DNA of 64,000 nt from the NCBI GenBank assembly GCA_019058445.1, contig JAHPZA010000001.1:141439-205438 (forward strand), in the 5' to 3' direction. The notes beneath the pieces were generated by a model, which saw only the letters and a list, made by a program, of their open reading frames with translations, did not search any database and had not been told where the DNA came from. The position numbers and the translations under genes were made by a program. Below are positions 60,420 to 64,000 of the stretch, piece by piece (positions within the stretch are counted from its first letter, which is position 1; every line of letters starts with the position of its first letter). This DNA comes from Promethearchaeota archaeon (GTDB taxonomy: Archaea; Asgardarchaeota; Lokiarchaeia; Sigyniarchaeales; SOKP01).

Positions 60420-60995
60420 TTAAGGAGAGAAAAATGATCTAATTCTCGCGCATTTATCAGGATGACGCAACGGAATTAGGCAAGCGAAATCTCTTATATT
60501 ATCGTGTCCTGTAATGTATAATTGATATACATTCCGGTCATTTGGTAGATAAACTCCGCTATGAATTGAAAATTGGTTTAATAGCTCTTGTAGAATGCAA
60601 ATTTTTATATTTTCTGAAGAATAGATTGAAAGCATGGGTTGATTCGTTCCCGTTGTCGTGGCGCTCCCTTCCGCGTCAAAAAAACCCGCTATCCATTGCT
60701 GTTGAAATTCTGGTTTAATTAATCTTACCAACTCTGGATTATTTTTAACTTCCAATATTTTGGTTACCAGCTCTTTATGAAAAAACCGGAGCCTATAATG
60801 AAGGCGATTAGTATGCGGTCTAATAATAATATCTTTATTAATCAAATCTCTGATGAGAGGTTGGATTTGTTCCAACCAACCTAGTGAGGCTGAATCTAAA
60901 TCAAATTCGTATCCTTTTTGGGGGCTAGTTCTTACATAGGCATCCTCGGCAACTCCGCAGATATACCAGAATTCTGAGAACAATTTAAATTCCAT
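60420..60995 (-). CDS. Free-standing LAGLIDADG homing endonuclease
   Basis: WYICGVAEDAY (degenerate motif 1), WIAGFFDAEGS (motif 2), IPLRHPDK. Confidence 0.88.
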   Translation of the reverse strand: MEFKLFSEFWYICGVAEDAYVRTSPQKGYEFDLDSASLGWLEQIQPLIRDLINKDIIIRPHTNRLHYRLRFFHKELVTKILEVKNNPELVRLIKPEFQQQWIAGFFDAEGSATTTGTNQPMLSIYSSENIKICILQELLNQFSIHSGVYLPNDRNVYQLYITGHDNIRDFACLIPLRHPDKCARIRSFFSP

Positions 60996-62227: not shown

Positions 62228-62606
62228 CAGGTTAAACAAATTTTCTTCAGACATAAATAAACTTAAGCAATCATAATTGAAGTTGTTTTAATATGTCAAT
62301 TAACATTAAAATTTTAACGTTTTAGAATTATTTTTCATAAAAAAAATAAGAAAAAAATAAATAAAAAAATCTTAACTCAGGAACACACCCCCTCACCAAT
62401 CGCTTCTTTTCTTGCCATTATTCAACACGCTTACCACTTCACACGCACTTAACCTCACTCCTGAACATTCAAAGCCCGAACCACGAGTCCTTTTTCAACA
62501 CCACACACTCGTGCTGTTGAGAACAGCGGGCTAAATAGGTCGCCCGGAAGCTCCCTACGTACACCCCTGTCTCACCAACCCCGTCTTTTACGGGTGCACT
62601 CGTCCT

Positions 62607-62848
62607 AATCCCGCGGTTGCTGTCACCAGCCCCCGCTCTAATTAGTTTGACAAGCTAATCATTTGGACTATGATGCTATGTTTTGCGCTGCGCTACTGCG
62701 CTATGCTCCACGCTACTGCGCTTCGCACTGTAAAATGCACAATTGTAAAATAATACATGTCCGGCTGACTTCCGGCCTACACAGGGCATAAAGCCTTGTC
62801 AGCCGCATCAGCCCAAATCACAAACTCAGCAAAATAATCTTACGGAAA
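62607..62848 (-). other. Supersized expansion segment at helix 98 (ES39), ~240 nt
   Basis: Long insert between conserved flanks ..CGTCCT and AGGAATGGATGACTATTTTCGGGG. Confidence 0.8.
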
Positions 62849-62874
62849 AGGAATGGATGACTATTTTCGGGGCC

Positions 62875-62909
<35 letters not shown>

Positions 62910-63032
62910 TAGCGCGTAGCTGCCCGGCGATGCCTTGTCAGACAACCGGTACACCAGAGGCGCCGGCAAAATGTTCCTCTCGTACTGATTTTCCCTTACC
63001 CTCAGTCCTCCAACAAACCCAGTAGATAGAAT

Positions 63033-63075
<43 letters not shown>

Positions 63076-63107
63076 TTAATGGGCGTACAGCCCCACCCTT
63101 GGGAGTT

Positions 63108-63140
63108 ATGCGCTCATTTCCAATACACGGAAATAATATG
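63108..63140 (-). other. ~31 nt insertion in the 23S helix 91 loop (relaxed-BHB intron or expansion; ends approximate)
   Basis: H91 spans 51 nt instead of ~20; internal hairpin UUAUUUCC/GGAAAUGA. Confidence 0.6.
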
Positions 63141-63225
63141 TGCGCTCCCAGGATAGGAAGAGCCGACATCGAGGAAGCAAGCCACGAGGTCGATAGGAGC
63201 TCTTACTCGTGACAACTCTGTTACC

Positions 63226-63256
63226 TTCCCGCGCATCGAGGCATTCTCGGATGCGT
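63226..63256 (-). other. 31 nt BHB intron in the 23S peptidyl-transferase centre (~E. coli 2446/2447)
   Basis: UUAC-CCCG-GG|A-CGCAU...AUGCG-CGGG-AA|G-GUAA is a canonical bulge-helix-bulge. Confidence 0.88.
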
Positions 63257-63269
63257 CCCGGGGTAATTT

Positions 63270-63363
63270 TTATAGAACGCACAGTAAATCTGCGCATTTA
63301 TATAGAACCCACAAAACTCGAGTCGCTAATATCTATCTATTAACTCCATTGATGTGGAAGTTT
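63270..63363 (-). other. Two stacked BHB-type introns (64 nt at 63300-63363 and 30 nt at 63270-63299) at one 23S site (~E. coli 2430s)
   Basis: 5' exon AUAG-AA pairs with either of two CUAU half-sites; removal restores GGUGAUAGAAAAAUUACCCC. Confidence 0.8.
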
Positions 63364-63860
63364 TTCTATCACCTCAACAAGCCACACAAGCAGCGTTAAG
63401 GATCGCTAGACCAGGCGTTAGCCTCAGGATTCCTTGGTAGTCAGAATCCAGTCAGGCCAGCTTTTGCTCTTAAACTCTGCGGCGGATTCCTGACCCGCCT
63501 GAGCTGACCATTGGTTACTCCAGATACCTTTTCTGGAGTGAGCCGCCCCAGCCAAACTGCCCACCTGCGGGTGTCCGTCACTTTCACGACGTTAGCGGTT
63601 CCAGAAAGGAAAGCCGGTGTTCCAATGTTGCTCCCCTACACCCGAAAGTGTAGGATCGACGCTCCCGACTACGCTCTGTATCCAGTCCAAAATCGCAACA
63701 ACAAGCTGCAGTAAAACTCCACGGGGTCTTCTCGTCCCACTGGGCTTCTCCGGACCGTTCGCCGGAGTGTGATTTCAATCGTCAGGAGGTTGGGACAATA
63801 GGGAGAACGTTGGACCATTCATGCACGTCTGAACTTACCAGACAAGGCATTTGGCTACCT

Positions 63861-63889
63861 TTCTCTCGAGGCTCGAGATGAGAGCTCGT
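63861..63889 (-). other. 29 nt BHB intron in 23S (~E. coli 1927)
   Basis: ACU-CUCU-UA|A-CGAG...CUCG-AGAG-AA|A-GGU; removal restores CUCUUAAGGUAG. Confidence 0.9.
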
Positions 63890-64000
63890 TAAGAGAGTTA
63901 TAGTTACTCCCGGCGTTTAGCAGGACTTACTGCGGTTGTAACCGCGATTTATCAGACTGCCACTGGCCAGGTTTCAGCCTCTGTAAACAAGCTTTCGCTC

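Follow-up and report, generated by a model that had tools for sequence, protein, structure and literature searches.

RESULTS

The 23S rRNA gene carries a compound intron in its peptidyl-transferase region

The window analyzed here, a stretch of 64,000 nucleotides (nt) from contig JAHPZA010000001.1 of a Promethearchaeota archaeon, carries on its reverse strand the 3' part of a 23S rRNA gene. In the peptidyl-transferase region, this gene contains a real, conserved compound bulge-helix-bulge (BHB) intron of 94 nt, built from two abutting units of 64 and 30 nt that share a single exon half-motif, AUAG. Judged from its sequence, the insert is very probably spliced out, and removal in two ordered steps is the best-supported pathway, to which we give somewhat better than even odds. 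The features of the locus are as follows.

62497 to 64000, reverse strand: 3' part of the 23S rRNA gene (model positions 1921-2987; RF02540, 812.9 bits)
63366 to 63369, reverse strand: exon strand AUAG, the central-helix partner (H1) for both CUAU copies (sequence and BHB scan)
63300 to 63363, reverse strand: unit 1, 64 nt (sequence, BHB scan and alignment of carriers)
63270 to 63299, reverse strand: unit 2, 30 nt (sequence and alignment of carriers)
63257 to 63269, reverse strand: 13-nt micro-exon AAAUUACCCCGGG, which separates the compound intron from the canonical one (BHB scan and comparison with 15 aligned relatives that lack introns here)
63226 to 63256, reverse strand: canonical 31-nt BHB intron, 13 nt downstream of the compound intron (BHB scan)

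On the sense strand the order is GGUGAUAGAA, the 94-nt insert (63363 to 63270), AAAUUACCCCGGG, the 31-nt insert (63256 to 63226), and GGUAACAGAG. Forty relatives were searched with this stretch, and the 15 that had the region, from the same genus, family, and order, were aligned. Neither insert was present in any of the 15, which carry an uninterrupted GUGAUAGAAAAAUUACCCCGGGGGUAACAGAG and read GUGAUAGAAAAAUUACCCC across the compound-intron site. Because these relatives read through without an insert, both the 94-nt and the 31-nt inserts are exact, and their removal restores the exon. One relative (L002) lacks both introns although its exons are 98% identical to those of this genome. The insertion site, at about Escherichia coli position 2435 to 2440, falls in a single-stranded, universally conserved stretch about 13 to 20 nt before the GGGGRUAACAG core, which is part of the peptidyl-transferase centre; the insert therefore sits in a conserved core strand, not a variable helix.

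Asgard large-subunit rRNAs are known to carry large expansion segments, and an unspliced insert kept in the mature rRNA as such a segment would agree with the fact that removal was not seen in the RNA data considered here. However, we regard retention as very improbable, given the single-stranded, universally conserved site close to the peptidyl-transferase core, the presence or absence of the insert between relatives with 98% identical exons, the splice-motif features found at its two ends as well as at the internal junction, and the 30-nt build that unit 2 has in common with the neighboring canonical intron. Fusion of two alleles during assembly is hardly credible. The 23S gene does stop at the end of its contig (C1), where the window also ends, and several related strains are present in the run, but a 195-nt contig from the probable source run crosses both introns without any difference, which argues that the insert is not an assembly artifact. 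The same arrangement is also found in five other assemblies and in contigs of a second study. Elsewhere in the genome, blastn-short searches with the 64-, 30-, and 31-nt pieces returned only chance 11- to 18-mers and no further copies.

Removal of unit 1 would assemble the splice motif of unit 2

The AAA that follows exon AUAG (63365 to 63363) forms the 5' bulge, with a predicted cut after 63364, and AUAG itself does not vary among the carriers or the intron-less relatives. Unit 1 consists of an A, AAC(UU)CCACA, a variable interior of 39 nt, UGUGG-GUU, CUAU (63305 to 63302), and AU. Unit 2 consists of an A, a 9-nt strand (63298 to 63290), the loop AUUUA (63289 to 63285), a second 9-nt strand (63284 to 63276), CUAU (63275 to 63272), and AA. 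Each unit ends in CUAUA(U/A), complementary to exon AUAG. In the precursor, AUAG and the first CUAU give unit 1 a motif with a central helix of 4 base pairs (bp) and bulges AAA and AUA; once unit 1 has been removed, AUAG and the second CUAU give unit 2 a motif with a 4-bp central helix and bulges AAA and AAA. The motif of unit 2 with exon AUAG forms only when unit 1 is gone, and unit 1 interrupts the 5' bulge of the unit 2 motif, being placed between exon AUAG-AA and the base that opens unit 2. This placement was seen in 6/6 full sequences (this genome and the five other carriers described below). A motif scan returned three candidates in this genome: the downstream 31-nt intron and, at the compound intron, one with the first CTAT (ATAG/AAA/5-bp inner helix/ATA), defining a 64-nt intron, and one with the second CTAT (ATAG/AAA/3-bp inner helix/AAA), defining a 94-nt intron.

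No exon-exon helix (0 bp) adjoins the 3' bulge, and GGUG/UACC can pair only 3 nt further out; for this reason, both units belong to the relaxed HBh' kind rather than the strict hBHBh' kind. In the precursor, the hairpin of unit 2 takes the place of the outer helix h for unit 1.

Much of this anatomy had been proposed in an initial annotation of the window, made from the sequence alone. The intron-like, exact nature of the 94-nt insert is borne out by the 15 relatives that read through the site, and the 64 + 30 split with its 9-bp hairpin and AUUUA loop was recovered base for base. The proposal that the first excision rebuilds the second motif holds in all six sequences, and the register of the two units gives the correct exon length. 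Likewise, the outer helix called relaxed proved to have no base pair next to the bulge, the further intron placed about 13 nt away is the canonical 31-nt BHB intron beyond the micro-exon, and one-step removal of all 94 nt, allowed for as another route, does have a motif with a 3-bp inner helix in this genome.

Within unit 1, the BHB scan found no conserved motif that would add a third level of nesting, and a conserved GGAGUAGAUAG stretch is present. This GGAGU(A)GAUAG stretch (approximately 63325 to 63345, reverse strand; columns 27 to 38 of alignment A1) is kept in this genome, L042, and L036/L038 and partly in L031. It includes an exon-like GAUAG(AA) and may act as a decoy that pairs with CUAU or be a remnant of the target site. 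On reading the sequence, no box C or box D motif of a C/D-box guide RNA was found within the intron.

The two-unit design is present in other assemblies

The 3' junction, UCUAUAA followed by AAAUUACCCYRGG, was scanned in metagenome and species-genome collections. Among chance matches, five 23S genes were detected: L031, L035, L036, and L038, all on metagenome contigs, and L042, from a metagenome-assembled genome (MAG; G084) of the same family as this genome. All five have an insert of 89 to 92 nt at the same site with the same two-unit build. Their unit 1 homologues are 59 to 62 nt long and comprise an A, AACUUCCAC, 31 to 36 variable nt, GUGG, a 3- to 4-nt bulge, AAGUU, CUAU, and AA; the 3' bulge of the first unit is AUA in this genome and AAA in these relatives. 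Unit 2 is exactly 30 nt long, and the CUAU-to-CUAU spacing is 30 nt, in 6/6 full copies. Since this exact spacing recurs in five other assemblies, the architecture goes beyond chance. That the design is not unique to this genome is new here.

A seventh, partial copy lies on a 151-nt marsh-metagenome contig from a separate study. This contig runs through the 31-nt intron and the micro-exon, all of unit 2, and 48 nt of unit 1, and it differs from this genome by 12 substitutions and not by any gap. Within unit 2, one C-G pair is replaced by U-A and one G-U by G-C, both compensatory, and three loop bases are changed. The marsh run also shows a "joint" between 63276 and 63355, precisely at the invariant ends of the element, which we interpret as one more carrier whose interior has diverged rather than as a deletion.

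A scan for the 5'-junction pattern across 161 genomes of the class returned only this genome and G084, apart from two chance matches in non-rRNA DNA. Genome-wide motif scans for 30-nt units and for the tandem signature showed no enrichment over the reversed genome (5997 versus 6033 loose matches; 11 versus 28 strict matches), so motif-only scanning is powerless here. Relatives carrying only the 30-nt intron, which the initial annotation had suggested looking for, were not found, nor were relatives with the 64-nt unit only: the 3'-junction matches from the metagenome and genome collections included no single-unit allele, and when 400 genomes of the phylum were searched for inserts of 18 to 48 nt at this position, there were six matches, roughly the rate of a reversed-pattern control, none of them intron-like. 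This absence is a weak negative, as many MAGs have no 23S gene.

The internal junction is conserved amid sequence turnover

Across the six full sequences, the stem of unit 2 has changed on both sides in five of its nine pairs, with 98% of cells paired. This covariation score was reached by 0 of 500 shuffles, slid controls fell to 30 to 48% paired, and RNAalifold agrees. The columns of the element fall into two classes. In the splice-motif columns (the 5' block AAACUUCCAC, the internal AAGUUCUAUAAA, and the terminal CUAUAA), 3/28 are variable, compared with 55/66 of the remaining intron columns; the sequences in this comparison are related to one another, and the 5' block was bounded after the data had been seen. 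The internal GUUCUAUAAA junction is nearly invariant among copies, and the 5' block AAACUUCCAC and 3' block GUUCUAUA of unit 1 are invariant. The difference between the two classes indicates that the internal CUAU-AAA is under constraint, and a conserved internal motif at fixed spacing amid sequence turnover is needed by a two-step pathway and not by a one-step pathway.

Local folds were consistent with this distinction. In predicted minimum-energy structures of 109- to 114-nt segments, AUAG(AA) pairs with the (UU)CUAU of unit 1 in 6/6 sequences. The pairing probability of AUAG is 0.50 to 0.88 with the first CUAU and 0.005 to 0.13 with the second, and forcing the second pairing costs 1.8 to 4.2 kcal/mol. 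Exactly 3 nt separate the central helix from the unit 2 hairpin in these folds, so that the hairpin takes up the position of the missing outer helix. Once unit 1 had been deleted in silico, counted in five sequences with L031 left out, the best predicted fold of three (this genome, L042, and L035) has the helix, a 3-nt AAA bulge, and an 8-bp hairpin, together with an outer GGUG/UACC, a 6-nt 3' bulge, and AUAGA/UCUAU as the central pairing. In the other two, L036 and L038, the hairpin forms and AUAG is unpaired. We take the folding results as supportive, not decisive.

These data bear on the alternative that the element is a single intron of 89 to 94 nt, removed in one step by pairing of AUAG with the last CUAU, with the hairpins inside and the internal CUAUAAA a relic or serving another role. 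We consider this unlikely. The corresponding motif (ATAG/AAA/3- to 5-bp inner helix/second CTAT/AAA), with an adjacent inner helix of at least 3 bp, occurs in 3/6 sequences, those of this genome, L042, and L031. That no carrier has one unit alone is as expected of one evolutionary and functional unit, and a broad-specificity EndA could cut bulges set by separate helices (PMC5829648). In contrast, L035, L036, and L038 have no inner helix beside the 5' bulge for pairing with the second CUAU, whereas the first-CUAU motif with its 5-bp inner helix is found in 6/6 sequences. One-step removal requires neither the near-invariant internal junction nor the exact 30-nt spacing, and it runs counter to the preference of the local folds for the first CUAU. 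Moreover, any pairing of the first CUAU with AUAG should lead the enzyme to cut the bulge behind that CUAU as well.

A reversed order, in which the 30-nt piece between the CUAUAA repeats leaves first by way of a UAUA/UAUA helix around the unit 2 hairpin and unit 1, by then directly followed by the exon, leaves second, appears improbable. RNAalifold does pair the two UAUA stretches around the hairpin in 6/6 sequences, and the repeats would lead to the same final product. However, the motif is poor, with a 2-nt bulge facing 1 nt on the other strand and no G-C pair; the UAUA pairs are invariant and gain no support from covariation; and the local folds put AUAG on the first CUAU and leave the second unpaired.

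A proposed two-step pathway for removal of the element

Removal of unit 1 followed by unit 2 would proceed as follows. In the first step, AUAG would pair with the first CUAU. This would set the 5' AAA bulge between the 4-bp helix and the inner helix of unit 1, and the 3' bulge between the 4-bp helix and the unit 2 hairpin, which would substitute for the missing exon-exon helix. EndA would cut both bulges and RtcB would join the ends, releasing 64 nt. This ligation would bring AUAG-AAA directly before the 9-bp hairpin of unit 2 and the second CUAU-AAA. In the second step, the resulting relaxed (HBh') 30-nt mini-intron would be removed likewise, restoring the exon GAUAGAAAAAUUACC. Both the excision itself and the order of the cuts are what we infer. 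Preservation of the design in five other assemblies suggests that it is probably selected for two-step removal. A stronger form of the proposal, for which we put the chances slightly below even, is a conserved, obligatorily recursive, protein-spliced intron in which one half-motif is used twice, the unit 2 hairpin serves as a surrogate outer helix, and ligation builds the second motif.

The genome encodes the machinery expected for such reactions. RtcB is present (PF01139, 574 bits), as is one endonuclease gene.

Contig C9 of this genome (G000), 770313 to 770921, forward strand: EndA-type gene, 202 amino acids, alpha-type, with N- and C-terminal endonuclease domains (PF01974 and PF02778)

Near homologues of this protein come from sources labeled Promethearchaeota or Lokiarchaeota, in keeping with an Asgard host. 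A second (beta) endonuclease subunit was not detected in this 92.6% complete genome, even at a lax threshold. Asgard EndA has been described as a heterotetrameric type with a loop that confers broad specificity, accepting relaxed motifs (Kaneta et al. 2018, PMC5829648).

Several observations weigh against ordered two-step removal. The AUAG/CUAU helices and the inner helix of unit 1 are invariant in all six sequences, and because these helices never vary, covariation is silent on which CUAU pairs with AUAG. The one-step motif is present in three carriers, including this genome, and, with near-identical repeats at the two junctions, the same product can arise by several orders of cutting. In a 234-nt context, the minimum-energy fold of this genome's sequence does without the short AU-rich helices. 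The two-unit logic is shared by six sequences from at least four lineages, but only about five independent lineages, themselves mutually related, could be compared. Searches of RNA runs found no run with the intron; two RNA runs (X2 and X3) contained exon parts only, with the intron-less junctions of relatives. On the enzyme side, the solved structure nearest to the EndA found here is the Methanocaldococcus jannaschii homotetramer, which has strict specificity, and only one EndA-type gene was detected although the genome is full of relaxed motifs. Broad specificity is thus ascribed to the enzyme of this genome by analogy with the literature.

The compound form is old

In a tree built from exon columns, L031, L036, L038, and L042 formed a clade (support 100/99), and this genome was placed beside the intron-less L002, a topology that requires at least two gains or losses. 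Most positions of the unit 2 stem differ between this genome and L042, though their 23S genes are about 86% identical overall. Because intron copies diverge far more than exons, the compound form is old and was not recently assembled in this genome. The repeated invasion of the site put forward in the initial annotation is therefore plausible as an ancient event and unsupported as a recent one in this genome. Its term "twintron" fits in part: the element is compound and unit 1 interrupts the motif of unit 2, but the word is loose, since the units abut in the DNA and unit 1 does not lie inside the sequence of unit 2.

The build of unit 2 (1 + 9 + 5 + 9 + 4 + 2) is that of the neighboring intron of L042, and the ends of unit 1 match the pattern A + 9 + loop + 9 + CUAU + AA, the loop being larger. 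Two standard units of about 30 nt may have been stacked at one target site long ago, after which the whole compound intron would have been inherited, lost, or transferred as one piece. This putative stepwise origin draws on the build of unit 2 and the ends of unit 1.

Other inserts in and around the 23S gene

The 31-nt intron downstream of the micro-exon has a 4-bp outer helix (UUAC/GUAA), the central helix CCCG/CGGG, bulges GGA and AAG, a 6-bp inner helix, and the hairpin loop AAUGC. The UUAC of micro-exon AAAUUACCCCGGG is one strand of its outer helix. Its counterpart in L042 is 30 nt long with a covarying stem, the marsh-metagenome contig carries it with changes in the loop only, and L031, L035, L036, and L038 lack it. 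Splicing of this intron yields GGGGGUAACAG, with G at approximately Escherichia coli position 2448, where most organisms have A. Of the 15 aligned intron-less relatives, 14 share the G (L017 has A); the G is therefore characteristic of the lineage and does not reflect adaptation to the intron.

Further inserts were observed in the same gene. Of 11 sequences compared, this genome alone has a 29-nt mini-intron at CUCUCUU^AAGGUAGCC (window 63861 to 63889, reverse strand); in L036, an insert of 31 nt lies 9 nt upstream of that site instead. A 31- to 39-nt insert in the GGGAGCGCAC...UAACUCCC hairpin (window approximately 63105 to 63140, reverse strand) is common to this genome, L002, L004, L031, L035, L036, and L042, with strongly diverged sequence, and is absent from L005, L006, L008, L009, and L012. 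At GUCGUGAG^ACAGGUCGG, which matches window 63041 to 63045, L002, L004, L005, L007, and L035 carry a longer insert that is absent here (116 to 206 nt; 791 nt in L035), and L035 has an additional insert of about 697 nt within GGUAA^CAGAG, beside the peptidyl-transferase A. Near helix 98, an ES39-like insert of about 210 to 246 nt (window 62605 to 62850, reverse strand) measures 26 to 233 nt among relatives. None of the mini-introns encodes a protein; a free-standing gene for a 191-residue LAGLIDADG protein (PF14528, E = 1.6e-13; window 60423 to 60995, reverse strand) lies 1.5 kb downstream of the 23S gene on the same strand.

Outside the window, the acetyl-CoA synthetase gene (acs; contig C10, approximately 621700 to 623200, reverse strand) is interrupted by frame changes, stops, and an in-frame 60-nt insert. 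It contains one 28-nt insert with a clear BHB motif (CCAA/TTGG, 8-bp inner helix), and the 60-nt insert does not resolve into two units.

DISCUSSION

It is customary to regard each archaeal BHB intron as a separate unit that has a motif of its own. If the two units described here are removed in order, a pathway based on a shape-reading endonuclease can support ordered multi-step splicing, which is so far known from spliceosomal and ribozyme introns. The element would then offer a natural substrate for probing how far Asgard EndA tolerates relaxed motifs, and it would bear on how mini-introns build up in Asgard genomes. In practice, compound inserts of this kind also disrupt the annotation of Asgard 23S genes and the sites that primers or probes target in them.

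Several components of the system are already well known, including relaxed motifs, tRNAs with multiple introns, and BHB introns in archaeal rRNA (PMC4496867, PMC4090602, PMC5829648). A census of Asgard tRNA introns reported heavy intron loads and named their route of arrival as the central open problem; rRNA and nesting are not mentioned there (bioRxiv 10.64898/2026.10.13.758758). In agreement with the initial annotation, which knew of no prior description, our searches of the full-text literature found no nested, recursive, or twin BHB introns in archaea, although subscription journals were thinly covered and novelty is accordingly unproven.

BHB introns in archaeal rRNA genes are best described in Thermoproteales and Desulfurococcales (Jay & Inskeep 2015, PMC4496867). 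Like these, the compound intron is an exact insertion in a conserved functional part of the rRNA, has a scattered distribution among close relatives, and has a 4-bp central helix and 3-nt bulges, for which excision by EndA and ligation by RtcB are expected. Unlike them, it resides in an Asgard host, has a very small unit of 30 nt and abutting units that share one exon half-motif, the second of which has its motif interrupted by the first, and lacks an outer exon-exon helix. In this last respect it comes closer to the relaxed HBh' tRNA introns of Crenarchaeota, Nanoarchaeota, and Asgard archaea, which are cut by broad-specificity EndA (PMC5829648; Yoshihisa 2014, PMC4090602). Each unit has the central helix, 5' bulge, and inner helix of that class and no proper outer helix; the host, an rRNA, is different. 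Lineages rich in relaxed tRNA introns carry EndA types with extra loops (PMC5829648; PMC4090602); a single EndA gene, alpha-like, was found here.

Outside the BHB world, the Euglena plastid group II/III twintrons and nested group II introns are likewise compound, are believed to originate when one intron inserts into a second, and are excised sequentially. However, those are self-splicing ribozymes nested in sequence, whereas the units described here lie side by side in the DNA, and their nesting is confined to the RNA motif. The logic is most like that of fungal stwintrons and of recursive splicing in animals (PMC6616335, PMC5587772, PMC5126111), in which the first ligation creates the second splice site and the 5' exon end is reused; in stwintrons, the internal intron interrupts a splice signal of the external one, as unit 1 interrupts the motif of unit 2. 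The resemblance is one of logic and not of descent, as the element would depend on a protein endonuclease that reads shape rather than on the spliceosome, and its host is not an mRNA. If removal is obligatorily recursive, the compound intron would represent an EndA-based equivalent of stwintrons and of recursive splicing in eukaryotes, kept by selection in the peptidyl-transferase region of 23S rRNA.
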